Part shown: in pieces, positions 36,916-61,933 of the stretch
Numbering within the stretch: the first letter of the stretch is position 1
Layout: each line of letters starts with the position of its first letter
DNA from: Bacteroidota bacterium
GTDB lineage: Bacteria > Bacteroidota > Bacteroidia > 2-12-FULL-35-15
Direction: 5' to 3'
DNA: 64,000 nucleotides
Assembly (NCBI GenBank): GCA_040387415.1
Contig: JAZKDU010000011.1
Span: 27,499 to 91,498, forward strand
Notes under the pieces: generated by a model
What the model saw: only the letters and a program-made list of their open reading frames with translations
What the model was told of the DNA's origin: nothing
The model's database searches: none
Position numbers and translations under genes: made by a program

Positions 36916-37893
36916 ATGATAGAAAGAATTGTTAAAGATCCGCGTACAGAAACCTTTGAACAAATTGAAGATATTGTTGCTAAATTCAATCATTACAGAG
37001 AATTAAGCGCTAAAGGATTACATAACCTTTCAGATAATGAAATTGAGGGTTTGAAAAAAAATTTTAGCAAATTCCTAAACTTAAATCTCACTTTTTTTGC
37101 CGACACTTATCCTGTTAAATTATTTAGGGTAACAAATAACAAACTCATATACGACCAACCTCATTACAAACTTCAAAAGATTTCTGACCTTATTGGTCCA
37201 CCAACTGAAAAAGCACATATCGGCAGATGTAATTTAAAAGATGAAAGTGTTTTTTATGCAGCCCTCGATTTTAAGACTGCTCTATGGGAGACACAACCTC
37301 AGAAAGGTGATGTTATTACAGTAAGCGAATGGACCATAAAGAAGGGCGAAAAATTGAACAATCATTTTATTTTTCATCCGGAAGCTGAAAACTTAAATAG
37401 GGATAGTAAAGATGCATTTATAGCACATATTAGAGCTCAAGGAAATCTAAATCCGAAAATAGGGCCAATTTTTAAAGAAATAATGAAGTTCTTTGCAGAA
37501 GAATTTATGAAGCCAGTAAATAATGATAAAAAAAACAATTATTTATTTTCAAGTATTATTTCTTCACAACTTTTACAAACGAGCCCTGACGAAAATGGAT
37601 TTAAAGTTGAATCAATAAGCTATCCAAGTACTAAAATAGACCATGAAATTTCAAATATTGCAATTCTTAACTCTTTAGTTCTAAAAAAATTAGATTTACA
37701 AGCTGTAACTATTTTCACTGTTGTCGAAACTAATTATGATTTGTCTAATAAAAAAAGAGAAGACCTTATCATGGTTTCAGCGTTAAAAACATATCATAAA
37801 AATTTCGACTTTGAAAAAGACCAAATATATTATGATCTTGAGAGAGAATTTAAAGATGCAATTGAGTTAGACACAGGAAAAAAAGTCGAATAA
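36916..37893 (+). CDS. RES-domain protein (putative NAD+ phosphorylase-like)
   Basis: LFRV, GRCN, FYAA...LWE, ISYPS..., NIAI motif order typical of RES domains. Confidence 0.72.
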   Translation: MIERIVKDPRTETFEQIEDIVAKFNHYRELSAKGLHNLSDNEIEGLKKNFSKFLNLNLTFFADTYPVKLFRVTNNKLIYDQPHYKLQKISDLIGPPTEKAHIGRCNLKDESVFYAALDFKTALWETQPQKGDVITVSEWTIKKGEKLNNHFIFHPEAENLNRDSKDAFIAHIRAQGNLNPKIGPIFKEIMKFFAEEFMKPVNNDKKNNYLFSSIISSQLLQTSPDENGFKVESISYPSTKIDHEISNIAILNSLVLKKLDLQAVTIFTVVETNYDLSNKKREDLIMVSALKTYHKNFDFEKDQIYYDLEREFKDAIELDTGKKVE

Positions 37894-37986: not shown

Positions 37987-40900
37987 TTACCTCGTTAACA
38001 CAATCCGTTTACTTTCCTTCTTGTTTTCTTTAATTATATTCAGAACATATATTCCTGAGGGCAGGTTTTGTTCCAGTTCAATCACTTCTTTAACACAGCC
38101 ATTAACAATGGAGAGTTGTTTCTGAAATACGGTCTGCCCAAGCGAATTAAGGATTTCAACTGAAAAGGTATTTTCCTTTAGTTCATCAACACAATATTCC
38201 ATTGTAAATCGCCCGGTAGTGGGGTTTGGATAAAGTATAAAATCATAGGGAACAAAATCATCTTTTGTTTCAAGGGTTTCCAAGGCAATATCCTCCATTC
38301 TTTGTCCTCCGGATATGCCTTTTAATTTAAGGTTAAAGCTGATGTCAGAACTGCTTCGCGAGTTCTGGTGAATTTCCACTGCAATAACGTTGTTGCCATT
38401 TACAAGGCTCGCTTTGCTGATGTTGGCTATTACATACGTTGATTCACTAGCTCCATCCACATAATTGGGTGCCAGCGTATTGTAATAGATAGTTCCGGCA
38501 GGCATATTATTTCTGTAAACTTCAACACCATTTAAATATACAACAGCACCGTCATCACGTATCAGGCTTAATTCCAAACTTGAAAAGGCGGATACATCAC
38601 TTACATTAAATGATTTTCTGAAATAGGTGGTAATGTATTTATTTGTTGATGAAGTACCATAGCCCACCACGGTGGCTTCGCCTCCATCACCATATCCCAA
38701 CTCAGTATTTCCGGTTTTCCAGCCAGTTTCATTGTAACTTACAGCTTTCCAGGTAGTTCCCTGATTTGTTCCGTTGTCCAGGTATTTCCAGCTGCCACCG
38801 GCTAAAATCAGGTCGGTATTGGGGCTTGGCGTAGTTGAAGTTGCCGGAGATAGGCGAATTCCGGGAATAGGACGCTCCATTGTCCCTTCGGGTGTCTGCC
38901 AGCCTACGGCAAGGTTATCGCCTCCTACAGCTTCTTTATGAAGTGCTTCTATGTAATATTTACTGCCGGCTGTTAAATAAATAAGAGCCGATTGCTGGGA
39001 AGGGTATTTAGTCCATTCACGGGAGTTGGTCCATCCGGTAACCGAGGCTATTTTTACTTTGCTGGATGGACTATCGTTTGTACTTAACCAAAGTTCCGCA
39101 TCATCATCGGCAGCTATCCAAAAGCGGTAATTACCGGTAGTTGGAGCACAAATAAATCCTTTTATCCTGTCGGCATAATTATCACCTGTATTTGTAGGAC
39201 CTTCAAAACTGCTCAGTTGGCTGGTACTTGTAGGTGCTGTAGTAACAGGGATCTGGTTCACATGATCACCTGTAACGTTTGCCCAGTATTCTCTTAAAAT
39301 AGTACCGGTTGCAGAACAGCTGCTAGGTGGTGCAGCAGATAATAATCCTTTCAGTTTCATATTAAAACTTAAATCAGAACTGTTTCCGCTTGATTGATGG
39401 ATCTCCACCGCTATGGTGTTGTTTCCATTAATAAATTTGGAAGAGCTTATCGTGTGTTTGGTAAAAGTAGCTTCAGCTGGTTCACTTAATGCGCTGGATG
39501 CCAGAGTGGAAGATGTAATTGTTCCCGATGGCATGTTTGAACGCAAAACTTCAACCCCATTAATGTAAACCACAGCACCATCATCTTTTAACAATTGTAA
39601 TTCGAAAGAGGAGTATTGTGAAGGGTTTGAAATTGAAACGGTTTTCCTGAAATAAGTAGTAATGTACTTTGCAGAAGAGTTGGATCCAAAGGAAACTACC
39701 GTATTTTCATCGCTATCACCATAACCGAGCTCGGCAAGTCCTGTTTTCCAGCCGGAGTCGTTATAGGATGATGCTCTCCAGCCGGTTCCCTGGTTAGTTC
39801 CGTTATCAAGGTATTTCCATTGTGATCGTTCAGATATAAACGGCTCCTGAGTTTTTGTGAAAGAGTATTCTGCAAAATAATAAGTTCCATCCCGTTCAGG
39901 GCCAATTACAGTATAATCACCAGCTCCGGGATCAAGATCCGCCACTCTGCTATTGGAAACATTACCCGATAAAAAAACTTCATTGCTTCCCCCAAGGGTA
40001 ATTTCCGGTTGAGGCATTTCTAAAGTTTGGTTCCAGAAAGTACTGCCTGTATTTGAATATTTGGTAAGAGTAGTTGTAGTTTCACCGCTTACAAGGTACA
40101 TATTCCCTTGATTATCAGCAGTTCCGCCACCTTGCCCAACAATGCGGTTGCTGAATGTATAATTACCTGAAGACGAATACTTTGCAGCAAAAAGATCTCC
40201 GTATTCTGAAGAAGTATAAGTGGTAGCGCCAGCTCCAGGATCAAAATCAACCGTTCCTCTGAAAATACCAATCGCATACATATTACCTGATTCGTCAGTC
40301 GATAAATTAGAAAAGTAAATTTCTCCGTTATCGTCTAAATTATTTACCCATAAAAAGTTTCCATTCAAATCGTATTGAGCAATAAATGCGTCTGAATATC
40401 CAACGGAAGTTTTGCTGGCAGTACCTGAACTTGGGTCAAAGTCAGCAGTTCCTTTAAAATTGCCGGCCAGGCTTAATCTGTTTGAATTATCAACAGAAAT
40501 TCCAGCTACTGAAACGCCTTCTACCTCGTTATTATCAATTTTTTTAGCCCACAAAAAGTTCCCTGCCGCATCATATTTAGAAAAGTACCCCGTATTATTA
40601 GTTGAAAAAAGATTAAACACTCCCGGACCCGGATTAAAATCAACGGTTCCTCTGAATATACCAGCAGCATAAATATTGCCTGCATTATCTGTACTGGCTT
40701 TTACAAACAAAAAATCATTATAGCTGGTATTCGCTGCCGTAAGCTTTTTGGCAAATATGAGGTTACCATCTAAGGTATATTTGGCAATGAACGCACTGTG
40801 TCTGACATCTGCCTTTAAATAAGCTTTCCCGGCTCCCGGATCAAAATCCGCGGAATCAGTACCGGAGGTGGTGACATAAATTGCACCGGTGATTAAAATG

Positions 40901-41163
40901 CCGGTTTGTAAAACATGAATATTCTCAATGGAAACGGTGGTAGTAAATTGGGTTGGCATCACTGTCTTTTTCCAGATCAGATCGCCAGATGTAGTGTATT
41001 TAGAGAAGGTATTAAACTTTGTTTGATAAATATTACCGGATGCATCCGAATTGAAATCTCCGAATGTACCTAGTTCGCTGTTTACTTTAGCCCAGTCAAA
41101 ATTTAACTGCCCGAATATAATCCCACTGTTCAACAATAAGAAAATTAATATGTTTGCTTTCAT
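37987..41163 (-). CDS. T9SS type A CTD protein: SBBP-like beta-propeller repeats, two jelly-roll domains flanking a PA14 domain
   Basis: Likely ATG at 41163 (MKANILIFLL); DFDPGAG repeats; duplicated WKYLDNGTNQGT..ITTYFRK..DDGAVVY.NG..AVEIHQ; PA14 AADDDAELWLS...HKEAVGGD; YPNPT...GIYVLNI. Confidence 0.88.
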   Translation of the reverse strand: MKANILIFLLLNSGIIFGQLNFDWAKVNSELGTFGDFNSDASGNIYQTKFNTFSKYTTSGDLIWKKTVMPTQFTTTVSIENIHVLQTGILITGAIYVTTSGTDSADFDPGAGKAYLKADVRHSAFIAKYTLDGNLIFAKKLTAANTSYNDFLFVKASTDNAGNIYAAGIFRGTVDFNPGPGVFNLFSTNNTGYFSKYDAAGNFLWAKKIDNNEVEGVSVAGISVDNSNRLSLAGNFKGTADFDPSSGTASKTSVGYSDAFIAQYDLNGNFLWVNNLDDNGEIYFSNLSTDESGNMYAIGIFRGTVDFDPGAGATTYTSSEYGDLFAAKYSSSGNYTFSNRIVGQGGGTADNQGNMYLVSGETTTTLTKYSNTGSTFWNQTLEMPQPEITLGGSNEVFLSGNVSNSRVADLDPGAGDYTVIGPERDGTYYFAEYSFTKTQEPFISERSQWKYLDNGTNQGTGWRASSYNDSGWKTGLAELGYGDSDENTVVSFGSNSSAKYITTYFRKTVSISNPSQYSSFELQLLKDDGAVVYINGVEVLRSNMPSGTITSSTLASSALSEPAEATFTKHTISSSKFINGNNTIAVEIHQSSGNSSDLSFNMKLKGLLSAAPPSSCSATGTILREYWANVTGDHVNQIPVTTAPTSTSQLSSFEGPTNTGDNYADRIKGFICAPTTGNYRFWIAADDDAELWLSTNDSPSSKVKIASVTGWTNSREWTKYPSQQSALIYLTAGSKYYIEALHKEAVGGDNLAVGWQTPEGTMERPIPGIRLSPATSTTPSPNTDLILAGGSWKYLDNGTNQGTTWKAVSYNETGWKTGNTELGYGDGGEATVVGYGTSSTNKYITTYFRKSFNVSDVSAFSSLELSLIRDDGAVVYLNGVEVYRNNMPAGTIYYNTLAPNYVDGASESTYVIANISKASLVNGNNVIAVEIHQNSRSSSDISFNLKLKGISGGQRMEDIALETLETKDDFVPYDFILYPNPTTGRFTMEYCVDELKENTFSVEILNSLGQTVFQKQLSIVNGCVKEVIELEQNLPSGIYVLNIIKENKKESKRIVLTR

Positions 41164-41286
41164 GTTACCGGTTTTCGTTTGCAATAATTCTATTACGAAC
41201 TTAGTCCAGTATTAGGCTGATTTGCAGCATTTTTCGACTGCGATAAATATAGAATAGTTAAAAAAACGTTTGCGTAGGGTAAAAAG

Positions 41287-44592: not shown

Positions 44593-45915
44593 TTAACGAA
44601 TTAATGAAATGTTTCCTTTTTTCATTAATTTTTCACCAGTATTTAGCTCCAAATCAATATAATAGACAAATACAGCAGGATCCAATGTTTTGCCTCTATA
44701 CGTACCATCCCATATTTTAGCAGGATTTTTACTTTCAAATACTTTCTCTCCCCAACGATCGAAAATATACAAAGCGAAGCTTGAAATGCATTTGTTCCAG
44801 CCATTTAGAATAAACTGATCATTGTGTCCATCACCATTTGGTGAAAATGCGTTTGGTACTGTAAAATCTCCGCAGGCTTCGGTTGCAGCTTCTTTTGTTT
44901 TTAAAGTCCATGGAGCAGAATAATTAATATTAGTAACTGTAACTGTATTTGCAGCGGAATTATTTGTGCCCAAAGTTGGATTTTGCCACTGTGTGCCGTT
45001 CCACATCCAGGCAAGTAAACTATCTTCAATAATAGTGTTGGTGCTGCCACTTATTGGATTCCATTCTGTGTCGCGATACGTAAAAGTAATAGTTGCAACA
45101 GGGTTTGAAGAGTAATTATTGGCATCAACATTCCAAAAGCGGTCGGCACAAATTTCTGCGCTTTCGTTGCCGCTTGCATCATTCAAGTCCGTCACCCCTG
45201 CAGGTAAAGGGCGATTGTTAGGACTCGCATTTACGCTGGTTGGATAAGTTGCAACGGATATATTTCCTGCAACGGTCTCAGTTCCGGCAGCAGTAACGTT
45301 ATAAAGAAAAGGAATGTAATTTCCGGATAGGGTTCCAAAAGGGTAAACATAGTTATTTGCTGTATTTCCAATATTCCATTGAACTCTGCCGTAACCTGCA
45401 ATTGCATCTGTTTCGGAAATAATGTATCCGGTTGTTCTTGTTATAGCGGTCGCAGCCGGATTTGTGATTATACAGGTGTTGCTGTTCAGATCGAGCGGGT
45501 TAAAATTCAATGAAAGAACTCCTGTATTACCTCCAACAACGGTATTAATATCAAGCGTTTTGGTGCCTGAGCCTTGTAAATTAAGGTTATTGAATGTAGT
45601 TGTTTGGGTTCCCATAATTGTTTGGGAAGCACCGTTTAAAATAACAGTCCCCACCGTTGGATCAAGACAGCCCAATGCCTCGTTATTGGTCCAATCACCT
45701 GTAATATACACATCACCCTGGTTATGAATAGCGCCAATATTATTAACTAAATGACCATCAACATACAAAATAGCACTTGAATAAAGTGTTACGTCAGTTC
45801 CACCATTAAAAAAGTTGGTTTGAGATAAGGAAGAAAACGGTGTCAAAATCATAGCCATGATTGTTAAAATCAAGGTCTTGCAAACACCATTAAAAATAGA
45901 AAAACTGTTTTTCAT
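44593..45915 (-). CDS. T9SS type B CTD (gliding motility-associated C-terminal domain) protein
   Basis: Signal peptide to SLSQ; C-terminal VPNAFSPNGDGHND...IFDRWGEKVF...WDGTYRG...KGNISLIR. Confidence 0.92.
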   Translation of the reverse strand: MKNSFSIFNGVCKTLILTIMAMILTPFSSLSQTNFFNGGTDVTLYSSAILYVDGHLVNNIGAIHNQGDVYITGDWTNNEALGCLDPTVGTVILNGASQTIMGTQTTTFNNLNLQGSGTKTLDINTVVGGNTGVLSLNFNPLDLNSNTCIITNPAATAITRTTGYIISETDAIAGYGRVQWNIGNTANNYVYPFGTLSGNYIPFLYNVTAAGTETVAGNISVATYPTSVNASPNNRPLPAGVTDLNDASGNESAEICADRFWNVDANNYSSNPVATITFTYRDTEWNPISGSTNTIIEDSLLAWMWNGTQWQNPTLGTNNSAANTVTVTNINYSAPWTLKTKEAATEACGDFTVPNAFSPNGDGHNDQFILNGWNKCISSFALYIFDRWGEKVFESKNPAKIWDGTYRGKTLDPAVFVYYIDLELNTGEKLMKKGNISLIR

Positions 45916-45951
45916 TGTTATGATTACTAGGTACAAAGTTCAAACTGTTTA

Positions 45952-48198
45952 TTATTTCTCAGATTTAGTACTGAGTATTGTTTCAAGTGTTTTAATACGG
46001 GTATCGTACTCCTGTTCCAGTTTTTTGAGTTTGCTTTGCAAACGATCAATTTCCGTTTGTTGATTTTGATTTAACTCTTTATAACTAGTAATTTCCTGCT
46101 GTTGTTCCTGAATGGCTTTAACCATGGGCATAATAAAATCGGTATAACGCAAAGAGTAAACTTCTTTATCATTTTTTGGCATATCAATTCCCGGGAAATT
46201 AAAACCACTCTCCTTAGCGGCTTTCTCTACATCCTGTGCTAAAAAACCGATACGTATTTCTTTTTCAGCTGCACTATGATCTATCTTATTAACCAAAGAG
46301 TCTGGTGTTCCCCAGATCTTGTGAAGTTCTTTCGGACGAACATTATAGGTTACCGGCTTTAATTTTAAAATAAAATCAAGTCCGGAAACATTTTCTTTAA
46401 CATTTGTTTTGTACCGTGCATCAGAATAGGTTGTCCAGGCAATTCCTCCATTGCTGAATTTTGTAACTGCTGTATTACCAAGTATTACTTCATTACTTCC
46501 GGTACATTGAGCATTTGCAATCCCATATCCCAGCATAGTAACATTGGTGCGGGATGTGGCTGGATAGGAAGTGCTGCCAATAAAAGTACATTGGTTAAAA
46601 TCAAAATTTCCACCGCTGCCATAACCTGCTTTATACCCTAGTGCTGTATTGTCACTTCCGTTGACATTGGACTTTAGCGCCTCCGCTCCAACAGCGGTGT
46701 TAAATACCCCGGAGGTATTGTTAACGAGGGCTTCAGAGCCAGTAGCAGTATTTTGGGTTCCGGTCATATTGGTAGAAAGTGCAAAGTAACCATTGGCCGT
46801 ATTATGGTACCCAGTGGTAGTGTTACCAAGTGCCTGAGATCCCATGGCAGTATTGTAGTCGGCAGTAGTACCTTGAAGTGCTCCCGAACCAACAGCAGTA
46901 TTGAATCTGCCTGTAATATTCGATAAAAGTGCATTAAAACCAATGGAGGTATTGCTGGCGCCAGTAGTATTGTTATATAATGCCTGGTATCCAACAGCAG
47001 TATTGCCTATTGCATTGGTGTTGGACCATAATGCCTGGTAACCAATTGCTGTGTTTTTTCTTCCAATATTTTGACTAATTGGTAATTGTCCTTTAAAGGC
47101 TTCATAACCAAGAGCCACATTGTCATTTATATGGGCAGAACCTGATTTTATATAATTAGCCATTGCGTTATAGCCTATGGCAGTAGCAAATGATCCGCCA
47201 GAGTTGTTACAAAGAGCATTGTGCCCCAAAGCAGTATTTTTACTCCCGATAGTATTAGAATATAGGGCGCTGTCTCCCATGGCAGCATTTCCAGTTCCTG
47301 TTGTATTGGAATAAAGTGCCTGGTAACCGTTTGCTGTATTGCTTGTTCCGGTAGTAACCGCATTTCCGGATTGATATCCGTAAAAAGTGTTAAATAATGC
47401 AGGATCAATTCTTCCTGATTTTTGATTGTTCACTTTTATATTAAAAGGGACATTATCAATAGTCCCAATAAAGTTAGTGCCGTCAACCGTGCCGGTATTG
47501 CCGGTAATGGTCCAATGAGTTCCTACATCAGTACCAGTTGCACCTGTTGTGCCTATAGTACCTGTATCTCCCGTTGATCCTATACTGCCAGTGCTTCCTG
47601 TATCACCTGTGGCTCCAGTAGTACCAACATTCCCTGTACTTCCATTGTTACCGGTATTTCCTGTAATTCCTATATCGCCCGTTGAGCCAGTACTTCCAAC
47701 ATTACCAGTTGATCCGTTTAGCCCTGTATTTCCTGTAACTCCTATAAGTCCATCATTTCCGGTAGATCCAGTAACGCCATTTGTACCAGCCCCAGTAGAA
47801 CCTGTAAAACCAATTATACCCGCAACTCCAGCAGAACCAGTTGGTCCTGTATATCCTGTTATTCCGGACCCTCCCGAAGTACCGTCACAAAGGGATTTCC
47901 AGTTATTTGTAATACCCTTCCAATAAAAGAAACAGGCAGAATCAGTATCATAAACCAATAAACTATTCGCAGGAGCCACAATAGCCAATCGCTGCAAGGC
48001 GGTCATTCGGGGAACAAGCATTCCTTTGTTATGAAAAGGGCTGGCATCTATATCAAGCAATGCAGATGGGGCAGGTGTTAACGTACCAATACCTATATTG
48101 CTGTTTTGGGCATAACTTTTTGCAAATGGATTAAAGCAAAACCTAAATAATAAAATGAAAAATAAGTAATGAAACTTCTTTATTATGATTTTTCGCAT
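45952..48198 (-). CDS. Fibre-like protein 1: N-module, collagen-like Gly-X-Thr, 17-aa NTAxGxxAL repeats, peptidase S74 chaperone
   Basis: Signal peptide to SYAQ; SDARYK..V...[21 protein letters not shown]..coiled coil. Confidence 0.88.
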
Positions 48199-48331
48199 AC
48201 TATTAATTTTATTGGGTTATAACCTTATCCTTATATGATGGCTCTAAAGTAATTAATAATTGTAATATTATTTCTATCCCGCTTTTAAATTTATTATCGA
48301 TCTGTTATTTTGTATCGGGTTATCCTCTAGA

Positions 48332-48371
48332 AATAAAAAAGGAAACAGTAATTGCTGTTTCCTTTTTTATT
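48332..48371. terminator. Bidirectional-type intrinsic terminator after the 48403 gene
   Basis: AATAAAAAAGGAAACAG-TAATTG-CTGTTTCCTTTTTTATT perfect stem. Confidence 0.88.
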
Positions 48372-48402
48372 CTTTTATAAATTTATATTTAGTGTTATGA
48401 TC

Positions 48403-49740
48403 TTATCTGATCAATGAAATGTTTCCTTTTCTTTGGATTTTATCACCACCATTAACATTGGCATTCAGGAAATAAACAAATACGTTTGGATCTAATGTTT
48501 TTCCTCTGTAAGTGCCATCCCATGACTTTCCAGGATCACTGCTTTCAAAGACTTTTTCTCCCCAACGGTCAAAAATATTTATAGAGAAATCAGAAACACA
48601 ATTGTTTAACCAACCACGAAGTACAAATAGATCATTATGTCCATCATTATTTGGCGAAAAGGCATTGGGAACGGTATAGTCACCACAAGCTTCAGGAGGT
48701 ACATCTCTTGATTTTAAAGTCCAAGCTGCAGAATAGTCAATCCCCGTCATACTCACCGTATTTCCTGCTAAATCAAGTAATCCAAAAGGAGGGTTCTGCC
48801 ATTGAATTCCATCCCATCTCCAGGCACGAAGACTGTCTTCAACAATATCATTTGTACTGCCGCTTGTTGTATTCCATTCCAAATCACGATAGGTAAGGCT
48901 TATGTTAGCAGTAGGATTTGTGGAGTAATTATTAATATCAGTTATCCAGAATCTGTCAGCGCAGGATTCAGCTCTGTCAGTGCCACTTGCATCATTTAAG
49001 TCTGAAACTCCGGCAGGTAAAGGACGATTATTAGGACTTGACGTAACACTTGTTGGATAGGTTGCAACAGATATATTACCATTGGCTGTTTGTGAGCCAT
49101 TTGCATTAACATTGTATACTACAGGAATATAAGTTCCTGATAAGGTTCCAAAAGGAATAGTATAGTTACCTGTTGAATTTCCAATATTCCATTGAAGTCT
49201 GCCATAGCCGGCAATAGGATCTGTTTCAGAAACGATATAACCGCTTGTACGTGTTATTGCTAAAGAAGAAGGATTTGTTATTTCACATACTTTACTGTTC
49301 AAATTAAAAGGACTAAAATTTAAAGAGAGTATTCCGGTGTTTCCACCAACAATTGTATTGATATTAAGTGTTTTTGTACCTGATCCCTGGCAATCTAAAT
49401 TATTAAATGTTGTGGTTTGTGTTCCCTGGATAAGCTGGGAAGCACCATACAGAATAACAGTTCCGGTTGTAGGGTCCAGACACCCAGATGGTTCGTTGTT
49501 TGTCCAGTCTCCTGTTAAGTAGATGTCACCCTGATTATGAATGAAACCAGTAGGTTCATTTATAACATGCCCGCCCACGTATAAAATAGTACTCGGATTA
49601 ATAGCGATATCAATACCGCCATTATAAAAATTAGTGGGCTGGGAAATGGAGAGAAAAGGCGTTAAAACACTTAATAACACTATAGAAACAAAGCGTGAGT
49701 GTATAAGTGAAATATATGGAAAATGTAATTTTTTTATCAT
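48403..49740 (-). CDS. T9SS type B CTD protein, paralog of 44593..45915
   Basis: Same IHNQGD.Y.TGDWTNN, PNNRPLPAGV.DLNDASG, ADRFW and VPNAFSPN...KGNISLIR motifs; start 49740 or 49749 uncertain. Confidence 0.9.
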   Translation of the reverse strand: MIKKLHFPYISLIHSRFVSIVLLSVLTPFLSISQPTNFYNGGIDIAINPSTILYVGGHVINEPTGFIHNQGDIYLTGDWTNNEPSGCLDPTTGTVILYGASQLIQGTQTTTFNNLDCQGSGTKTLNINTIVGGNTGILSLNFSPFNLNSKVCEITNPSSLAITRTSGYIVSETDPIAGYGRLQWNIGNSTGNYTIPFGTLSGTYIPVVYNVNANGSQTANGNISVATYPTSVTSSPNNRPLPAGVSDLNDASGTDRAESCADRFWITDINNYSTNPTANISLTYRDLEWNTTSGSTNDIVEDSLRAWRWDGIQWQNPPFGLLDLAGNTVSMTGIDYSAAWTLKSRDVPPEACGDYTVPNAFSPNNDGHNDLFVLRGWLNNCVSDFSINIFDRWGEKVFESSDPGKSWDGTYRGKTLDPNVFVYFLNANVNGGDKIQRKGNISLIR

Positions 49741-49997
49741 TTTTTGCATATTTATGTTATAAAGATATATCATTTTAACGGCTTTTCAAAATTAAATTTG
49801 TTATTTTTTTAGTGTTTTTCAATATTCGATGCTTGGTGTTTTTGTATATAAAAAACACGTTATCTATTTTTACCTATTCCTGCTCCGTTTTAGTTGAATG
49901 TCGAAACAATTTTTTTTATAACTTCCCACTGCGATTTGATTCTCAATATACATTTTCCAGTATTTAATATCGAAAGAATAAATTAAAATAGTGAATT

Positions 49998-50936
49998 ATG
50001 AAAAATCTGTTTATGCTGGTTGTAGTAGGTTGGATGCAACTATTTGTAACATTTGCTCAAAAAAGTGAATTAGGTTTAGAACAAGCTCAGATAAAGGGAG
50101 AGGAGTATATAAATAAAATTTTGATGAGCAATATTGGCGGAAAAGTAAAAGTTAAAAGTATTTCGGAAGAGGATTGTCTTTATAAGCTTATTATAGAAAC
50201 CAACGGACAGGAATACATTTCATACATGTCCAAAGATGGAAAAAAATTTTTTCAAACTGGAAGAGATATTGATATGGAGATGAAAAGATATATTGATGAA
50301 CGTACAACAGTGAAATTAGTGAAACCCAAAGTTGAACTTTTTGTAATGAGCTATTGTCCGTATGGTATACAAATGGAAAAAGGTATTTTACCCGTATTGG
50401 AAACTTTAGGAAATAAAATTGATTTCGAATTGAAGTTCTGTTCCTATGCAATGCACGATCAAAAAGAATTAACCGAACAATTAAGAGAGTTTTGCATTCA
50501 AAAGCAGTATCCGGAGTTATTTATAAATTATTTAAGCTGTTTTCTGGAAGAAGGAAATTCAGCAAAATGTTTAGTAAAGTCAGGGATAGATACGATAAAA
50601 CTGAACAGCTATATAGCCGCTACGGATAAGGAGTACCACGTTATGGAACAGTTTAAAGACAACAGCACCTGGTACATGAATAAATACCCGAGCTTCAATA
50701 TTTATAAGGAGGATAATATAAAATATAATTTAAAAGGCTCGCCCAATCTGATAATAAATGGTAAGAAAATGCCTTCAGGAAGAGACCCTCAAAGCCTTAT
50801 GGAATTAATAAGTTCGGCATTTATTGAGCCGCCTGCAGAATGTAAAACCAAATTATCGTCTGCAAACCCATCTCCAGGTTTTGGATCAGCCAACGCAGCA
50901 CCAGGCCCAAATCAGGAGTGTAATGGAAGTAAGTAG
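49998..50936 (+). CDS. Exported thioredoxin-fold (GILT/DsbA-like) protein
   Basis: Signal peptide; PKVELFVMSYCPYG motif, GSPNLIING cis-Pro-like loop, several further Cys. Confidence 0.7.
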   Translation: MKNLFMLVVVGWMQLFVTFAQKSELGLEQAQIKGEEYINKILMSNIGGKVKVKSISEEDCLYKLIIETNGQEYISYMSKDGKKFFQTGRDIDMEMKRYIDERTTVKLVKPKVELFVMSYCPYGIQMEKGILPVLETLGNKIDFELKFCSYAMHDQKELTEQLREFCIQKQYPELFINYLSCFLEEGNSAKCLVKSGIDTIKLNSYIAATDKEYHVMEQFKDNSTWYMNKYPSFNIYKEDNIKYNLKGSPNLIINGKKMPSGRDPQSLMELISSAFIEPPAECKTKLSSANPSPGFGSANAAPGPNQECNGSK

Positions 50937-50997: not shown

Positions 50998-52953
50998 CTA
51001 CTGACAAGACCCATTACATTGTGTTATACCAGTCATATCAGGAACGTGCACATAATGCGTACATCCGGTTGTAGGGACTACTTTCGTATAAGAATCTTCT
51101 ATAGCATAACCAGCACCTGATGAATCAAAGCATGAACCATTGGGAGGTTGAGGATAATGAAAAGGATCATAATAAGCGTAACCAATATACGTACAGGTAG
51201 GCCCTGTATACTCAACAAAGGAGTCGGAATTAGCACCATTACAATCTCCCGGTACATTACCGTAGTATATACCCACAAACGAAGCACATCCGTAATTGTC
51301 ATCACATCCTGGTTGTAATTGGGATGTGCCTTTATCACAAGCCGCACCCACGTTAGATACGCAGCAGGATGCAGTTGTTTGCGTTAAGGTTGTGGCTACT
51401 GAATTTTCGCAGCTATTATAGGCCCAAACATATAACGTGTAAGCAGTATTACAGGTGAGACCAGTTTGAGTATAGGTAGGAGTAGCTAACACATTAACAC
51501 CAACTCCTGGATAAGTGCTGGAAGTACTCCATTGATAGCCTGCTGCACCGGAAACTGTGTTCCAATTCCAAACAATTTGTGTTGCAGAAGGTGTATTGGC
51601 GCCTGCTACCGGAGCGGCCAGTGTGGAACTAACAACTACAGATGAAGTACTAACAGGCGCAGCGGAACCGCATGCATTGCTTGCTGTTAATGTATATGCG
51701 CCAGCTTCGGCAGATGTGGTATTGCTTATGGTTGGGCTTTGCGAAGAAGAGGTAAAACCGTTTGGCCCTGTCCACGCCCAGGTTGTGGCACCTGTGGCAC
51801 TTCCGGTTAGCGTTAGTGTTGTTCCCGGACAAATTGGATTTGGCGAAGCAGATGCGGTTACGGTGGAAGGTAATGCTGTAACGGCTAGAGTGACAGTTAC
51901 CGGTGCAGATGAACCACATGAATTACTTGCTGTTAAAGTATATGTCCCCGCGCCTGCTAATGTTATAGCTGTTATGGATGGGTTTTGCTGAGCGGAGGTA
52001 AATCCGTTGGGGCCCGTCCAACTCCAGGTTGCAGCTCCTGTAGCATTCCCGGTAAGATTTGCAGTTGCACTTTCACAAACCGGATTGGCAGTAGCAGCAG
52101 CAACTACAGAGGCTGGAGATGTGGAACATGCCGCTCCGCAGGACATGTTAACCCATGCATTTCCAATACTATCCCACCATTCATAACAATTGGTTGTGGT
52201 GTTAAAAATAAGCAATGAATGAGCTGGAGAAGCAATAGCATTGCGTTGAGTTGTGGTTAAGCGGGGTACAAGCACTCCCATATTTGTGCTCGTGATATCC
52301 AGTTTTGCTGAACCATCAGGCGCTGAATTGGTATTAATTCCAACATTCGATCCATTATCATATATACTGGAATTACACATATCTGTTGGGCTAGTGAATT
52401 TTGTTACATAATTCGCTGCTGCTGTATTACAGATTGTACCAGGCCCCGTTGCGCCTGTTATCCCTGCTGTTCCTGTGGGGCCCATACTGCCCGTGAAACC
52501 ATTGATTCCGGCTGTTCCACTTGCTCCTGTTACACCATTTGTTCCAGCCGTTCCGGTTGCTCCGCTAGCGCCAGTATGTCCTGTAGAACCTATCACTCCA
52601 TTGGTTCCGGCTACGCCTGTGCTACCGGTATTACCTGTTACTCCAGCACCAACACTTTGGTTTAAACCGCATAAAGATTTCCAAGCTGTTGCAGCGGAAC
52701 TCCAGTAAAAAAAACAAGACGAATCCGTATCAAAAACTAATAAACTATTTGCAGGAGAATTTATAGCAATCCGTTGAAGAGCAGTCAATCGAGGAATCAA
52801 TAAACCTTTGTTGTTTGATTGGTTTCCATTAATGTCCAACAATGCAGAAGGATCCGGAGTTAATGTACCAATACCTACACTGTTGGTTTGAGCAAAAGAG
52901 GATATGGAGATTAGTATAAATAATATAGTATAAATGAACAGTAATTTTCTCAT
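50998..52953 (-). CDS. Fibre-like protein 2: N-module, collagen, second module copy, two Ig/PKD-like repeats, FN3, Cys-rich tip
   Basis: Likely ATG 52953 ([12 protein letters not shown]); [10 protein letters not shown] repeats; [29 protein letters not shown]3. Confidence 0.85.
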
Positions 52954-53016
52954 GAAAGAAGAATTCAAATTGTACATTGGATTATGATTTAATAAAAGTA
53001 AACTATAATTTAACAT

Positions 53017-55452
53017 CTAATAAAATGAATTCCATGTAGTTCCATCAAAACCTTCAAATTTATTTAATGTTGTATTAAATCGAATCATCCCTGTAGCAGG
53101 ACTAGCGGGTCTTTGAGCTGTAGTACCAACAGGTACAATAACTGCACCTGTTCCCACCACATCTAATTCACTTCGAGGGGTAGTGGTGCTGATACCAACA
53201 GTACCCGTTGAAAAATCTCCGTAAATTAAAGGAGGATTCGTACTGTTATTTGCAATATAAAGTTTATCAGATCCGGTTTCATTATAACCAGCCCTGTAGC
53301 CGAGAAACACATTGTTGCTGCCTGTGGAATTACTATATCCAGCATTGTGCCCGAGGGCAGTATTGTTTAAACCGCTGGTATTAGTATATAGGGACTGCGT
53401 CCCACTGGCAGTATTTCGGGCTCCAATGGTATTGAAATTAAGTGCACCATATCCCGTGGCAGCATTGAAGTATCCTGTGGTGTTGGTTTGAAGTGCAACA
53501 TAGCCGATAGCCGTGTTTTGATATCCCGTAGTATTAAAACGCATAACATTTGTTCCAATGGCTGTGTTTTCGTATCCTGTAGTATTATTAAACAGTGTAT
53601 GCATTCCTGTAGTTGCATTACCATCTCCAATTGTATTACTCAAAAGAGCTTGATAACCAATAGCCGTATTTCTGTTTCCTGTATTGTTAGCAGCAGTATT
53701 AGAGCCCCGCAATGCCTCATAACCAACCGCAACATTCTGATTATCAAAACCGACAGATGTGCTATTAGCATATTTCATAGCATTCGCTCCAATAGCGGTA
53801 GCGTTGCGTCCTGATACATTATAATAAAGAGCTCCTTCTCCCACAGCAGAATTATATGAACCTGCTGTATTGGAAAGAAGCGCTCCGTTACCAAATGCAG
53901 AATTGAAATTACCGGAAGTATTGGATAAAAGCGGACCATTGCCTACCGCGGTATTGCCAGCACCCGTTGTAACAGGGTTCAATGCACCATAACCAAATGA
54001 GTTATTACCATTTCCCGAACGGTCAATCAAGCCTGATTGAGTATTTGCCACTTTAAAAACTAAATTTTGCGCATCAGTTGTTCCAATAAAATTGGCACCT
54101 GCTGTGGTGCCTGAATTGCCAGTAAGTGCCCAGCCACTTCCACCACTCGATGTTTGCCAACTTCCCTGGCCATTGGCATCAGAAGTCAGCACTTTTCCTG
54201 CTCCCTGATTTCCATCTACAATTTTTATTGTTGTTCCTGAAGCTCCAATTACTTCCAGTTTAGCACCGGGACTCGTAGTATTTATACCAACATTACCATT
54301 TCTGTCAATTCTCATTCTTTCCACTAACGTACCGGAAGCATAAGTAGCAAAATAGATGCCTCCAACACCACTGGGTCCGGCAACTTCTCTTACAGCGCCT
54401 ATAGTTGCTTCGGTATTCGTTAAACCTGCTGCGCTTGAAAGTTGAAATGCGATGCCAGAGCGTGTGCCAATACCTGTATTGTTTTGTGAAAGCATGAGTA
54501 TTCGGCCATCTCCCGGAGAGGTTGCTGCATCATTCACTAATCCATGAATAGGAAATCCGTACGATCCCGGAATAACAGCCGTGGATCCTAAAATTGAATT
54601 GCCCCAAACACGAAGTGTTTCCTCGGGAGTACTAATACCAATACCTACATTTCCTGCAGATGTAACCCTGATTTTTTCCGAATTATTGGTTGCCACTACT
54701 ATATCTGTAGCGTCTGTAGTTCCTATAAAATTTGTTCCCGGTGTAGTACCTGCGTTGCCTGCAAGTGTCCAGTGTGTGCCCACATCTTCACCAGTAGCAC
54801 CTTGTATTCCCGTAGTGCCAGTTGACCCGGTAATACCTGCTCCTGTAGTACCTGTAAATCCTGGTTCTCCTGTTGCACCCGTTGAGCCGGTAACTCCTGA
54901 TCCTGTTGCACCTGTTGTACCTACATCTCCTGTGCTGCCGGTAACTCCTGTATTAGCAGTAACACCTGTTGCCCCTAGAGTTCCTCCTCCGGTAGCGCCA
55001 GTTATACCTATATTCCCAGCAGCACCCGTGAAACCAGTTTTTCCGGTGGTGCCTATAGATCCTGCGGTACCAGTAGCTCCGATGACTCCAGTACCTGTAA
55101 AACCCGTTGCTCCCATTATACCGGCACCGGTAGTTCCTGTGTTACATAATGATTTCCAGCTGGTGGTTAATGAATTCCAGTAAAAGAAGCAGGAAGAATC
55201 AGTATCAAATACCAGCAAACTGTTTGCCGGAGAGGCAATGGCTAAACGTTCTGTAGCATTGAGCCGAGGAATAAGCAAGCCTTTGTTATTTGCAGGTGCA
55301 GCATTAATATCCACCAGGGCAGAAGGATCTGGAGTTAATGTACCTATACCTATATTATTAGTTTGAGCGAAACTTTGGATTACTGCAAACAGAAAATTGA
55401 TGTATAAGAAAAAAATGAAGGTAGATCGAAGTGCATTTCTGATTTGTTTCAT
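53017..55452 (-). CDS. Fibre-like protein 3: N-module, collagen, shaft repeats, 17-aa repeats, C-terminal module-like cap
   Basis: Likely ATG 55452; ends [35 protein letters not shown]; no S74. Confidence 0.85.
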
Positions 55453-55566
55453 TATAAAACTGTTATTTTCCAATACTTAATAACCATGCTAACTATTAAT
55501 TTATGGTTACTGAATTATTTGAAACTGTTTAAATTTACTGTTTATTTTGTTATAGCTTCCCACTCC

Positions 55567-55620
55567 TTCGACTAAGCTCAGGCTGCCAGCGCCCGGTCAT
55601 ATTGAGCTTATCGAAATATG
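55567..55620. repeat. REP-like inverted pair
   Basis: TTCGACTAAGCTCA (55567-55580) and TGAGCTTATCGAA (55603-55615), the second preceded by GTCAT. Confidence 0.65.
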
Positions 55621-55671
55621 TTGGCTGTATTAGTACCTATAGAATTTTTTATAAAAATTTAAACAGACTCT

Positions 55672-58191
55672 TTATTTTTTGGAATTATTCATTAATGTTT
55701 TTAATTCCATTATTTCAAATTTCATGTTTTTAAATTCTAATTCTGAACGGGCTTTTAAATTCAAATTTTCCTGCTGCATTTTTTCAATGATAGTCTTTTG
55801 GTTGGTGATTGTAGTTGATAAACTATCTATCATCTGCTGCTGTTCCTGCACTGCTTTTACCAATGGAACAACAAATTGAGAATAAGCAACACTGTAATTT
55901 TCATTGGTATTTTTTGGTGCATACAATCCGTCAAAGTTAAAGCCAGTGTTTTTAGCAGCCTGTTCCACTTCCTGAGCAATAAAACCCGTACGGATAATTG
56001 CTGTTGATGGCTCATAATCAGTGTTTTTATTACGTTCTCTCCTGATACTATCGGGCATGTTTTGCATCAGGAATTCATCAAATTTTTTGGTGTCGAAATT
56101 ATAAGTAACCGGGCGAAGTTTGGTAATAAATTCTAACCCTTTTACTTCTTCCTTTATGTTGTATTTGAAACGGCCATCGCTAGGGACATAGTTATTTGCC
56201 TGGCTTTCTATTTCGGTAACGGTGGCATTTCCAATTCTTACTTTATCACTTGCGTTAACAATGGCGTTGTAGCCTAATGCTGTTGCATTACTTAAAGCAG
56301 TAGAGCCTACATCAGCACCGCCACCTATAGCTGCATTATTATCACCGGTGGTGTTAATATAAAGAGCAGCGTTTCCAATAGCCGTATTATTATTTCCTAT
56401 GGTATTATCATGCATGGCGTTTTGACCAACGGCTGCATTAAAGTTTCCGGTAGTATTGTATAAAAGACAAAAATAGCCATTGGCTGTATTGTTGGAGCCG
56501 CTTGTATTATAAACCAGGGCATTTGCACCTGAAGCCGTGTTATAGGTACCATTGCTATTAACAAGCAAGGCATTCAGTCCAATGGCAGTATTACCGGTAC
56601 ATATGTTACAAGCATTCAATGCTTTTGCACCCACAGCAGTATTTGCTCCAAACGTTACTGAATAAAGGGCTTTGTAACCAACAGCGGTATTATTACTCCA
56701 TACGGTGTTTGAATACAAAGCCTGATAACCTACTGCAACAGAACCACCATTTGTACCCGCAGTGGTATTTGAATACAATGCCTGGTAACCAAGAGCAGTG
56801 TTTTGATCTCCTGTTGTATTACTGTATAGGGACTGGTAACCATTTGCGGTATTCCCAAAACCTATTGTATTTGAGTATAAGGATTTACTTCCAATTGCCA
56901 AATTGCCAACAGCTTCAGTGGGGGAGGAAGTGCCCGTACCATTGTTGTAAAGTGCAGAGTCACCAATGGCTAAAAGGCTGTTAAGGGTTGTGCTTTTAAA
57001 CATAGCATTACTGCCAATTGCAATATTAGAATATCCTGTTGTATTGTAATGGAGAGCAGCTATTCCATATGCAGTATTATTGCTTCCCGTTGTGTTGGAA
57101 GTTAGCGTTCTGGATCCATTGGCTGTATTTCCATTTCCTGTTGTATTTTCATCCAGAGCGTTGGAGCCGGTTGCAACATTTTCTGATCCTGTGGTATTGG
57201 CACCCAATGCATTCTGACCGGAGGCGGTATTTACCCCACCAGTAGTGTTTGCACTCATCGCACTTCGCCCAATAGCCGTGTTTCCAAGTCCAGAAGTATT
57301 ATAATATAAGGCATAGGCCCCTACGGCAGTATTTACATGACCATCAATATTCGAATAAAGAGCATTCCTGCCAATAGCGGTATTTTGGTAACCTGTAGTG
57401 TTTACTGAGCCAACTTTATCGCCAATAAACGTATTATTATTACCTGTGTTTACTTTTCCGTTCATATATCCAAAAAAGGTATTGGATAATGCAGGATCTA
57501 TTCTGCCGGCCTGTTCATTATTTACTTTTATAGTTAATGGCACATTGTCAATAGTACCAATGAAATTGACACCATCTACAGTTCCTGTATTACCGGTAAT
57601 TGTCCAATGAGTGCCCGAATCAACTCCGGTAGCTCCGGTGCTGCCGGTAATTCCGGCCCCTGCACCTGTTGGTCCCGTGACTCCCATTGTTCCGGCAGCT
57701 CCCGTTTCACCAGTGCTTCCGATTGATCCTGTTCCAGTACCAGTGGCTCCGGTAATTCCAATCAACCCTATAGCGCCTGTTTCACCAGTGCTGCCCGTTA
57801 CTCCTGCACCTGTTGAGCCTGTCGTACCAATTATACCCGGGGCACCAGTACCACCTGTAATTCCAGCAGCTCCTGATCCGGAAGAGCCACTATTACATAA
57901 GGATTTCCAGATTGTAGCATTCCAGTAAAAAAAGCAGGCCGAATCAGTGTCAAATACTAATAAACTATTAGCAGGTGATGGAATAGCCAAACGTTGAGAG
58001 GCTGTCATCCTAGGAATAAGTAATCCTTTATTATTTGCAGGGCTGCCATTTATATCGAGAAGAGCTGAAGGTGCAGGAGTTACTGTTCCAATACCTACAT
58101 TTTGGGATAATGAATATTTTGGTACAAATAGGTTCCAGATGAAAAGAATTATACTAATTGTAAAAAGAGTACTGTTTTTAAAGCTAACCAT
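55672..58191 (-). CDS. Fibre-like protein 4: N-module, collagen, long 17-aa repeat stalk, peptidase S74 chaperone
   Basis: Signal peptide to SLSQ; SDGRFK..I...[21 protein letters not shown]. Confidence 0.88.
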
Positions 58192-58238
58192 GTGTCTTTT
58201 TTTTAGTCTAATGATTTGATAATCATTTAATTGATTTT

Positions 58239-58246
58239 CAAATATA
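58239..58246 (-). promoter_or_regulatory. -7 box upstream of fibre 4
   Basis: Minus strand TATATTTG matches TAnnTTTG, ~48 nt before the ATG. Confidence 0.5.
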
Positions 58247-58310
58247 ATGTTATAATTGATTGCCTCCAGTTATTGGCATAAAAAAAATGAAGCATCCATT
58301 TGATCCGGAT

Positions 58311-60326
58311 TTATTTTTTTTTCAGAATTTCTATTTCATTTTGCATTTCTTTTATCATCCTTTGCTGCTCTATAATCTGCAACTGCATGTTTTCAACAGC
58401 TTCTAAAGTTTGAAATGACATTCGGGTGATATTTATAGTGCCTTTATGTTCTTTTTCCTCCATTTTTGCAGAAGTTAGCCATGGCAGATGCCCTTTTCTT
58501 TTGATAAATTTTTCAACATCCTCAAGCGAATAAAATGTATAATCCGGCTTAAAAACATAATCTGGTTTAGAATAAACTGATCCATCCATTGCACCGCAGG
58601 ATCCATCATAATAAATACTACCTGTAGCACGTATATCACCGCATACATCAAGTGTATAAGCAGGGCTGGAAGTGTTAATTCCCACAAATCCATTTAAATT
58701 TACCCTAAGAAATTGTTCTGTCGGGCCATTAATTCCGCCCCCTCTACCAACTATAAAAAGCGGGTTATTAAGATATGCTCCGCTAAGTGCGGCATTATTT
58801 CCATCCGTAGATACGGCTAATACGGGGGTTGCGCTTACATAATAGGAGGTGTTATTTGTTCCCATTGAACTAAAAATTGCAGCTCCATCATCATATACCG
58901 TTAATCTTCTGGTTGGATTTACAGTTCCAATACCAATTTTGCCGGCAGAAGTTACTCTAAACCTTTCTAAATTGTTAGTAGCAACAACAAAATCTTTTGT
59001 ATCCTTTGTTCCGATAAAATTATTGTTTACAGCACTGCCTAAAAGTGCTGTGGAAGGAGTGGTTCCGGTATCCCCTGTAGTAAGCCATCCTGCATTAGAA
59101 ATGTTGGCCCAGCTTAAATTACCAACGCCATCATTTTGCAAAAAAGAAGATGGAGTGCCCTGTGCTGCTGGAAGTACTAGTGAATAAGATGTGGTGGTAG
59201 TGCCTGATTGTATATTCAGTGTATTTGTATTTGCTGCATTATAAAACAGGATGGACCCATTAGCTGCCGCAGCACCTCCCAAACCTCCAAATGAAATACC
59301 TGAGCTGATTTGCCCTGCAGCGTGTATTAATGAGGCAGGCGCTGTAGTACCTACCCCTACATTTCCATTGTGAGTTATGGTCATTGCATTTATAGGTGTT
59401 GCAGCTGTTGCTGTTCTAAATGAAATTGCAGGTTTTGTAATGATGGGATCATTATAAATATTATCAATATAAGTATCTCCATTATTTGTATAGTTTATTA
59501 GAAAGCCTTCCGTCATTCCAAAATTTTCTCCGGTAAATCTAATGGCAGCATTATTTAAGCCTGAAATTCCAGGGCTTCCGGGACTTAATCTAAATTCAAC
59601 AGGGCCCGGATTGGCAATATGCAGCTTAACAGCGGGGGAGGATGTTCCAATACCCACATTGCCATTAGCTAAAATTCTCATGTTTTCAGAATTATTTGTT
59701 TTAACAACCAGATCTATGGCATCTGTAGTTCCTATAAAATTGGTTGCTGCATCTGTAGATGCATTACCCGTTATTGTCCAATGGGTTCCAAGATCTGCAC
59801 CTGTAGCCCCTATTGCACCTGTGAATCCTGTTAAACCCGTTGTGCCAATATCACCTGTAATGCCGGCAATTCCAGCGGCACCTGTTTGCCCAGTAACACC
59901 TATTGCACCAGTTGTTCCGGTTACACCTGTTAATCCAACGGATCCGGTAATACCGGTGGAACCAGTTTGGCCCGTAATACCTATTGTACCAGTTGTTCCT
60001 GTATTGCCTGTTGTGCCATTATTCCCGACAGTTCCTGCATTACACAGTGATTTCCAGTTTGTGGTAATTGCATTCCAATAAAAAAAACAGGCCGAATCGG
60101 TATCAAATACCAACAAACTATTGGCTGGGGAAGGTATAGCAATGCGCTGAACAGCTGTAAGCCTTGGCACTAAAACACCTTTATTATTACCCGAACTGGC
60201 ATCGACATCCAGCAATGCCGATGGAGCAGGAGTTAGCGTACCAATACCAATGTTATTGTTTTGCGCGAAGGATGGGGAACAAATTAAGATCCACACCAAT
60301 AAACAAGTATAAAAATATGTTTTCAT
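58311..60326 (-). CDS. Fibre-like protein 5: N-module, collagen, GxVGIGT shaft units, PDYVF-type C-terminal coiled-coil domain
   Basis: Signal peptide to SFAQ; [10 protein letters not shown]...LEDVEKFI...HLP..SA; terminal coiled coil. Confidence 0.86.
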
Positions 60327-60343
60327 ATAGTACTATTTTAATG

Positions 60344-61906
60344 TTATCGTATTCCAATTGCAAACCAATTTACAACACCGCTGCCACTCTGTTTCATTTG
60401 AATGTCGTTGCCGCTTACCTGAAAAGTAATTGTACTGTTGCCGTTGGGAACAGCATCCTGGGTAAAAATAACAGAAGAGCCTAAACCATCATCATGACCA
60501 ACCATTGCAGTAGCTACTCCTCCAACTGCTGCAGTTGCATAAATCAAACATGCATGACTTGATGATAATGTCATAATGGTTACATACGTATTGGAAGCTA
60601 AATTAGGTGAACCTGCTTGTGAGCGAAAGCCCGTTGCAGTGGCTGTTCCAGAAACTTCAAGTTTGGAAGAGGGGCTTGTGGTTCCTATACCTACGTTGCC
60701 AGTCACATCATCAATTGCGATTGGAATGAGTCCTGATACAGAGTTATACAATATAAATTTATTTGCAACTGCGCCACTTGCATCGCAACCTAAAAGCCAA
60801 TATTTTGAATTATCTGATGGATAATCATACCTAATATGATTATCGCCTGCATTTGAAGATGTCAGCCTCATTACCGCTACACCATTAACAGTGGGTGTAT
60901 TTAGATGAAGTCCGTGGGTTGGAGTTGCTGTACCAATACCAACATTACCACCACTTGTAATGATCATAGCAGGATCAATTGGCGTTCCGGCAAGTCCAAC
61001 GGCAAAACGTAAATCTCCGTTAATATCATTCAAGGAGCCTGAAGAATAAATTTTTGCTCTGTTTACAGAAGAAGATGCAGCTCCGAAAGTAATCACATTA
61101 TTTTCTGTTGGAAGGTTAGGTTGTAACCTGAAAATGGAATTTCCGTCACTTTTAATTTCCATAGCAGTGCTTGGCGTTAGGGTACCAATACCAATATTAC
61201 CAAGTGAAGTAACTCTTATTTTTTCAGTATTATTTGTGTAAATTGCAAAATCCTGTGCATCCGTGGTCCCCAAAAAGTTTGTTCCTGCATTGGTACCGGC
61301 ATTACCTGTTATTGTCCAATGTGTTCCAATATCGGAGCCTGTAGCCCCGGTAGTTCCTATATTGCCTGTAACACCGATGCTGCCCGTAGTTCCAACCGAA
61401 CCTGTAACACCAGTTGTTCCTGACACTCCGGTAGCGCCAATTCCTCCACTATTTCCAGTTGTTCCTATTAGTCCTATACCTGTGGCACCCGTAGCGCCAA
61501 TTCCGCCATTAATGCCGGTTGCTCCAATTAGTCCTGTGCCTGTTGCACCAGTAGTGCCAATCCCTCCGGTATTACCAGTTGCTCCCGCTATGCCCGTACC
61601 CGAATTACATAACGATTTCCAGCTTGAAGCCACGCTACTCCAGTAAAAAAAACAAGCAGAATCCGTATCAAATACTAATAAACTATTTGCGGGAGAGGGA
61701 ATAGCAAGCCGTTGGAGAGAAGTCATGCGCGGAACAAGCACCCCTTTGTTATTACCGGAGCTGGCATCAATATCCAATATAGCGGATGGGGCAGGAGTGA
61801 GGGTACCGATACCTACATTATTGTTTTGTGAAAACAGTTTACTTTCAGTTTCTATCAGAAAGGAGAAAATAAAAAAGATCGCGAAAACGTAAACTATTTT
61901 TTTCAT
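60344..61906 (-). CDS. Fibre-like protein 6: N-module, collagen, shaft units, small beta-rich tip
   Basis: Signal peptide to LFSQ; three GN(I/V)GIGT.TP/SP units; ends ...[10 protein letters not shown]. Confidence 0.86.
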
Positions 61907-61933
61907 CGGTTTTAAATTAATCTTTAATAAAAA

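Follow-up and report, generated by a model that had tools for sequence, protein, structure and literature searches.

Predicted type IX secretion cargo proteins of an undescribed family are encoded behind phage-tail-fibre-like proteins in Bacteroidota

The window analysed here is the whole 64,000-nucleotide stretch from a Bacteroidota bacterium (assembly GCA_040387415.1, contig JAZKDU010000011.1, positions 27,499 to 91,498 of the forward strand), and its subject is two genes for small proteins that carry the C-terminal domain (CTD) of type IX secretion system (T9SS) cargo, CTD proteins 1 and 2, together with the long fibre proteins encoded around them. An initial annotation of this DNA, made from its letters and open reading frames (ORFs), had proposed that the two CTD proteins carry or anchor fibres that have no CTD of their own. 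The features concerned are as follows, in window positions and in the order in which the minus strand is transcribed.

50998–64000, minus strand: run of six fibre genes, all without a CTD, of which the five with a visible N-terminus start with a common module (the N-module); in transcription order the ORFs are 61934 to 64000 (open to base 64000, its N-terminus lying beyond the window edge), 60344–61906, 58311–60326, 55672–58191, 53017–55473 and 50998–53016.
49998–50936, plus strand: intervening ORF of 312 aa with a signal peptide and a CPYG thioredoxin-like motif, convergent with fibre gene 50998 and divergent from CTD gene 2.
48403–49773, minus strand: CTD protein 2, a 456-aa ORF that probably starts at 49749 or 49740; it is paralogous to CTD protein 1 and matches PF13585 and TIGR04131.
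About 48418–48675, minus strand: type B CTD of CTD protein 2.
48332–48371: palindromic, terminator-like hairpin with an 18-bp stem, between CTD gene 2 and fibre 1.
45952–48198, minus strand: fibre 1, 748 aa, matching PF01391, PF13884 and the PHROG tail spike and tail fibre families; in order, a signal peptide, the N-module (47884–48108, placed by tblastn and a hidden Markov model), collagen-like GXY repeats, YadA-head-like NT-rich repeats, an S74 intramolecular chaperone domain (about 46207–46425) and a coiled-coil tail.
44593–45915, minus strand: CTD protein 1, 440 aa when read from the ATG at 45915, with a putative signal peptide, a passenger of ~310 aa and a type B T9SS CTD.
44893–45825, minus strand: passenger domain of CTD protein 1, of an unnamed family, with a predicted beta-solenoid-like N half and beta-sandwich C half.
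44596–44862, minus strand: type B CTD (CHU_C) of CTD protein 1, matched by PF13585 on aa 359–444 of the 447-aa ORF.

NCBIfam or Pfam scans reached nearly all window ORFs of at least 120 aa. At the extreme C-termini of CTD proteins 1 and 2, PF13585 (CHU_C) scored 69.2 and 63.6 bits, respectively, against a curated cut-off of 27, and TIGR04131 scored 55.5 and 56.9 bits against a cut-off of 35. The proteins are 67% identical over their full length, so the annotation was right to describe them as paralogues of the type B class, and both have N-termini that are hydrophobic by eye (...SSLSQ/TN and ...LSISQ/PT). On these features, both genes are predicted to encode ordinary Sec-plus-T9SS cargo of the type B CTD class. 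None of the seven window fibres matched a type A or type B CTD model, in agreement with the annotation, whose further statement that they lack a lipobox stands as a judgement by eye.

The longest reading of the CTD gene 1 ORF (44593–45936, minus strand) gives 447 aa from a TTG; its ATG at 45915 lies 36 nt past the fibre 1 stop (45952). No minus-strand terminator-like site was found between the two genes, which probably form a strict, co-transcribed pair. The annotation had read this fibre-then-CTD arrangement as a unit repeated in the window, which is correct for CTD gene 1 but does not extend to CTD gene 2: the strict unit occurs once only, because the opposite-strand ORF parts CTD gene 2 from the fibre run and the terminator-like hairpin follows it. 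This hairpin has a perfect stem flanked on both sides by A and T runs, giving it the look of a bidirectional terminator. The intervening ORF matched no family in Pfam or NCBIfam; since both the fibres and the passenger have conserved cysteines, it is conceivable that it encodes a dedicated oxidoreductase.

The association between fibre and passenger genes was analysed in both directions across other loci (designated L and a number). The forward set comprised 40 genome loci with the passenger domain, collected with a profile of six close sequences; adding the passenger genes from N-module loci gave a total of 53, of which 49 had enough upstream sequence to be evaluated. An N-module gene lay immediately upstream on the same strand in 35 of these 49, mostly at distances of -23 to +60 nt, and pairing was found in 10 of 15 passenger clusters (single-linkage, 60% identity). 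The upstream partners were varied, with collagen and S74 regions, phage tail-collar C-termini (L014 and L017) or beta-helices (L027, L035 and L040), and the L035 pair comes from the cultured Ohtaekwangia koreensis DSM 25262. Because both these partners and the downstream neighbours differ between paired loci, the pairing is not merely inherited synteny. At L009, L044 and L117, three to five fibre genes are followed by one passenger gene, an arrangement that resembles the window.

The reverse set consisted of 80 metagenome loci that were found by the N-module alone. Here, a CTD gene follows on the same strand after 14 of 37 N-module runs, compared with 11 of 212 other genes (odds ratio 11, Fisher p = 3e-7, an optimistic value because some loci are near-duplicates). 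A CTD in cis was present in none of the 159 N-module ORFs, versus 8% of genes in the same loci. The non-random co-occurrence of fibres and the CTD family, which the annotation had named as a check, was therefore recovered from both sides. The genetic coupling of fibre and passenger is strong, and a functional coupling is well supported.

Passenger homologues fall into about 190–200 clusters, nearly all of them unnamed proteins of uncultured Bacteroidota, and the ~310-aa passenger without its CTD has no match in Pfam, NCBIfam or PHROG. Relatives at 50% identity or above carry PF13585, and more distant ones (40–50%) carry PF18962, a type A signal; curated Pfam models confirmed both CTD classes on the passenger partners derived from the loci. 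As a T9SS CTD is kept while its class swaps between A and B, the conserved unit is the passenger, always directed to the T9SS. AlphaFold2 modelled the passenger with confidence (pLDDT 90.5, pTM 0.90); in this model the N half is beta-solenoid-like and the C half a beta-sandwich. A fold search with this model against PDB and BFVD returned nothing below an E-value of 1e-3, the best hit being a weak ZU5/FIIND-like one (TM 0.25), and a profile search against PDB sequences found no relative. The passenger family itself is new, and so is its coupling, which is statistically robust, to a huge class of fibres without a T9SS signal.

Several passenger loci depart from the simple pair. The passenger domain also occurs inside giant proteins of 1,514–3,962 aa (L026 2655–14543, L038 6650–11194 and L039 6638–11197), which end in a type A CTD in L038 and L039 and in a CTD-like tail in L026. 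A conserved gene of ~280 aa lies 3' of the passenger gene in a type A subfamily (L029 11406–12248, L032 11435–12277, L030 2918–3559 and L033 10937–11776), and its product opens with the fibre-start motif QxVGIG…L-V-G. As this gene with a fibre-start motif follows the passenger, the type A subfamily forms a three-gene unit of fibre, passenger and short fibre-like protein. A passenger subfamily that follows a carboxyltransferase gene looked unpaired; in its member L123 (4165–6108), the fibre gene (PTL_trimer and collagen) lies downstream of the passenger in convergent orientation, and in L122 (7398–11715), two unannotated genes of 674–679 aa hold the place of this fibre gene.

The window fibres contain collagen-like repeats, and their PHROG matches are to tail fibre and tail spike families. 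The S74 domain (PF13884, cut-off 22) that the annotation had ascribed to the fibres was detected in three of the seven, 45952 (39 bits), 55672 (39.5 bits) and 61934 (33.5 bits), and the Pfam scan found none in the other four. One of these, fibre 58311–60326, has a C-terminal domain of ~110 aa with a coiled coil at the position that S74 takes in its paralogues; this domain is not recognised by Pfam and may be a divergent intramolecular chaperone. The N-module is 65–79% identical across the six window fibres whose N-terminus is present, and a conserved Cys stands immediately ahead of the first GXY repeat. Further copies occur within the 50998–53016 protein (aa 223–291) and at the C-terminus of the 53017–55473 protein (aa 758–816), so the module is not strictly N-terminal even in the window.

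The annotation had taken this N-module for a dedicated docking module, a view that did not hold up. Ten out of ten homologues at 55–83% identity to the window N-module carry a precomputed match to PF26696, 'PTL_trimer' (76-aa query, short fragments); the family is not listed on the window fibres themselves in Pfam scans, so its assignment to them is by proxy of these homologues. The fibre genes adjoining passenger genes in L121 and L123 also carry PF26696. An exhaustive profile search gave 45,236 representative proteins with the module, 15,833 of them at E ≤ 1e-10; single proteins have as many as 16 copies, and the longest reaches 4,687 aa. No CTDs were among the top 25 families of 62 representative N-module proteins. 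An AlphaFold2 model of the N-module (pLDDT 73 overall, with the C-terminal 45 residues confident) matched the N-terminal trimeric domains of CBA120 TSP3 and TSP4, the HylP phage fibre, the Mtd N-domain and the trimerisation domains of collagens XV and XVIII. With ~45,000 representative proteins against ~200 passenger clusters, the most fitting reading of the N-module is a generic knob for trimerisation or attachment and not a tag dedicated to adaptor binding.

PorP-like proteins retain uncleaved type B cargo at the cell surface, where PorE links the complex to peptidoglycan (PMC9143113, PMC12618676), and orphan type B cargo employ a shuttle that is encoded elsewhere (PMC12618676). No PorP/SprF family match was obtained on the window ORFs scanned with NCBIfam or Pfam, and none of the T9SS core genes sprA, gldKLMN and porV lies within the 64 kb. 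The absence of PorP/SprF noted in the annotation is therefore real, but the paradox that it was thought to pose dissolves: it is an ordinary situation, because orphan cargo is documented (PMC12618676) and relatives of the window proteins carry porP/sprF downstream. A porP/sprF gene (PF11751, 109–254 bits) directly follows the type B passenger gene in L002, L054, L100, L107 and L117, and in L054 and L107 it is followed in turn by a porE-like gene with PD40, CarboxypepD_reg and OmpA domains. This order of passenger, porP/sprF and, in some cases, porE is the operon type of statically anchored type B cargo (PMC12618676, PMC9143113). The window CTD genes are accordingly predicted, from their domains and neighbours, to encode ordinary orphan type B cargo.

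Across Bacteroidota, passenger genes thus appear to be the last of their operon, or the last before porP/sprF and porE-like genes, and to lie behind genes for trimeric phage-tail-fibre-like proteins, which are predicted to have a PTL_trimer knob and a signal peptide and no T9SS signal. The reading that we favour, and to which we give an even chance, is that the passenger is a surface base or partner of the upstream-encoded fibres. The passenger protein would be exported by the T9SS; a PorP/SprF-type shuttle, alone or together with PorE, would then hold a type B passenger at the surface, and a type A passenger would presumably be held via the PorU sortase and anionic lipopolysaccharide (A-LPS) route known for type A cargo. 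Once there, it could serve the upstream fibres as their surface base or partner, one base sufficing for a whole run of fibres with a common N-terminal knob. We infer a physical contact between fibre and base, and an anchor role of the passenger is plausible; passage of the fibre through the SprA/Sov translocon with the base as its carrier is more speculative.

That last step is the core of a strict piggy-back mechanism, in which the fibre trimer, already folded, would be bound by the CTD protein in the periplasm and the complex taken through SprA/Sov by that protein's CTD, acting in trans, so that PTL_trimer fibres cross the outer membrane as folded trimers bound to a small CTD partner that stays behind as an anchor on PorP/PorE or A-LPS. 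It draws on the same genomic evidence as the surface-base model. The T9SS signal is kept by the partner through the swap of CTD class and none of the 159 N-module ORFs has a CTD in cis, even though 8% of genes in the same loci do; this is the pattern expected of a CTD supplied in trans. Genes that overlap or lie less than 30 nt apart suggest stoichiometric co-production, and the T9SS is known to transport folded proteins, including very large cargo (PMC9251779). On the other hand, full-text literature searches turned up no account of the T9SS co-exporting a hetero-oligomer, and most PTL_trimer proteins have no CTD gene as a neighbour, so we consider this mechanism doubtful.

A number of observations weigh against the passenger as a surface base, and some of them favour two proteins that are co-regulated and physically independent, with the fibres leaving by another route common to PTL_trimer proteins and the CTD protein acting as a separate adhesin or enzyme in the same process. 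In size, the N-module family (about 45,000 representative proteins) exceeds the passenger family (about 200 clusters) by a factor of more than 100, and about 60% of N-module runs have no adjoining CTD gene; consequently, most N-module fibres must arrive at their destination either unaided by this partner or with the help of one whose gene lies elsewhere. On the structural models, the likeliest primary role of the N-module is trimerisation, as befits a generic knob. CTD gene 2 looks like a transcription unit of its own, set apart from any fibre in the window by the plus-strand ORF 49998–50936 on one side and the hairpin 48332–48371 on the other. Among about 200 passenger homologues and 150 N-module proteins, no protein fuses the two; the passenger-bearing giant proteins of L026, L038 and L039 have no adjoining N-module gene, the passenger subfamilies of L007 and L010 are unpaired, and not all loci are phylogenetically independent. 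Independent proteins nevertheless seem improbable to us, since the 11-fold enrichment, the order, strand and tight spacing kept over divergent subfamilies and the survival of a CTD class swap exceed typical loose co-regulation, and the Pfam and NCBIfam scans revealed no other export signal on the fibres. Adjacency by chance, or by synteny inherited among close relatives, would be compatible with L001–L009 and L044, which share the window's downstream genes (MBL-rhodanese and saccharopine dehydrogenase) and so are not independent. It is contradicted by the reverse search and by pairing that is kept in subfamilies at 35–50% identity, with unrelated flanks and with type A CTDs, and that is found in Ohtaekwangia, Chryseolinea and Marinifilum, taxa of different lineages, with an N-module gene two genes upstream in a Flavobacteriales metagenome-assembled genome. 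We regard this explanation as extremely improbable.

The closest operon analogues of the proposed surface base are sprCDBF of Flavobacterium johnsoniae and Fjoh_3952-3951-3950. The latter, like PG1035-PorP-PorE of P. gingivalis, represents the complexes of type B cargo, PorP (SprF) and PorE, to which the window proteins are alike in their TIGR04131/PF13585 CTD and putative signal peptide and the passenger relatives in their downstream porP/sprF and porE-like genes; the window copies themselves are more akin to the orphan cargo that use Fjoh_1677 (PMC12618676, PMC9143113). Unlike in these systems, the passenger belongs to an undescribed family, some members of which have type A CTDs, and the one to several genes for CTD-less fibres that stand in front here are absent from type B operons as described. 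In sprCDBF, according to Rhodes et al. 2011 as cited in PMC12635249, the adhesin gene sprB (type B CTD) is preceded by the accessory genes sprC and sprD and followed by the shuttle gene sprF, and SprC moves along the same surface track as SprB (PMC12635249). Accessory genes ahead of a type B CTD gene are common to both systems; the likeness is one of gene arrangement. In contrast to SprB, it is the CTD protein that is small here (~440 aa), and the long proteins are the fibres without a CTD encoded upstream. SprC and SprD are not known to have a CTD.

In terms of function, the closest analogues are phage fibre-adaptor pairs and BclA-BxpB. The N-terminal attachment domains of phage tailspikes and fibres, such as CBA120 TSP3/TSP4, share with the fibres described here the fold of the N-module, the PHROG families and the S74 chaperone, and interchangeable fibres on a common base usually combine a conserved N-terminus with variable distal domains. 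The phage systems differ in that the window has no phage genes, its fibres have Sec signal peptides, and the candidate base is a T9SS cargo protein without a PHROG or BFVD relative. On the Bacillus exosporium, the collagen-like filament BclA is fixed via its N-terminal domain to BxpB/ExsFA. This is again a collagen-like trimeric fibre whose short N-terminal domain joins it to a base protein with its own gene, but the two cases have neither organism, envelope nor export route in common and are not homologous, so the comparison goes no further than analogy.

At present, T9SS cargo is predicted from a CTD in cis. The loci described here present a very large family of fibres that have signal peptides and no visible CTD and are significantly often encoded just ahead of a small CTD protein of a structurally new family. 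Should the fibres be anchored or carried by this partner, the T9SS secretome would have to be defined more widely, the display of interchangeable fibre sets on one base in Bacteroidota would be explained, and a handle would be at hand for the surface display of CTD-less proteins; export in trans, if true, would be the first instance of hitch-hiking in type IX secretion. If the partner does neither, how the roughly 45,000 PTL_trimer proteins leave the cell becomes a clearly posed question.

Beyond CTD gene 1 lie an MBL-rhodanese gene and then a saccharopine-dehydrogenase-like gene, and the remainder of the window holds housekeeping genes (valS, tpiA, prmA, folP, plsY and comEC) and three genes for type A CTD proteins (30435–32909, 33303–35648 and 37987–41184). 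An origin of the fibres in a prophage or tailocin was rejected, as there are no phage structural, packaging or lysis genes near them and they have signal peptides; with housekeeping genes as neighbours, the locus is Bacteroidota chromosome and not prophage. A scan for sigma-70 promoters gave 21 sites versus 26 expected and was uninformative; the promoter consensus of Bacteroidota also differs from that of sigma-70. The type A CTD proteins 30435–32909 (plus strand) and 37987–41184 (minus strand) are both large; one has leucine-rich repeats like the corresponding region of SspH2/SlrP-type effectors, and the other has two near-duplicate internal modules. The 1495-aa ORF at 17403–21890 (minus strand) had no NCBIfam or Pfam matches. 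Finally, a 325-aa ORF at 36916–37893 (plus strand) gave a RES-domain match just below threshold (22.7 bits, cut-off 23.2) and a 195-aa ORF at 12001–12588 (minus strand) matched the SUKH-4 immunity family; these two ORFs may be remnants of a toxin/immunity system.

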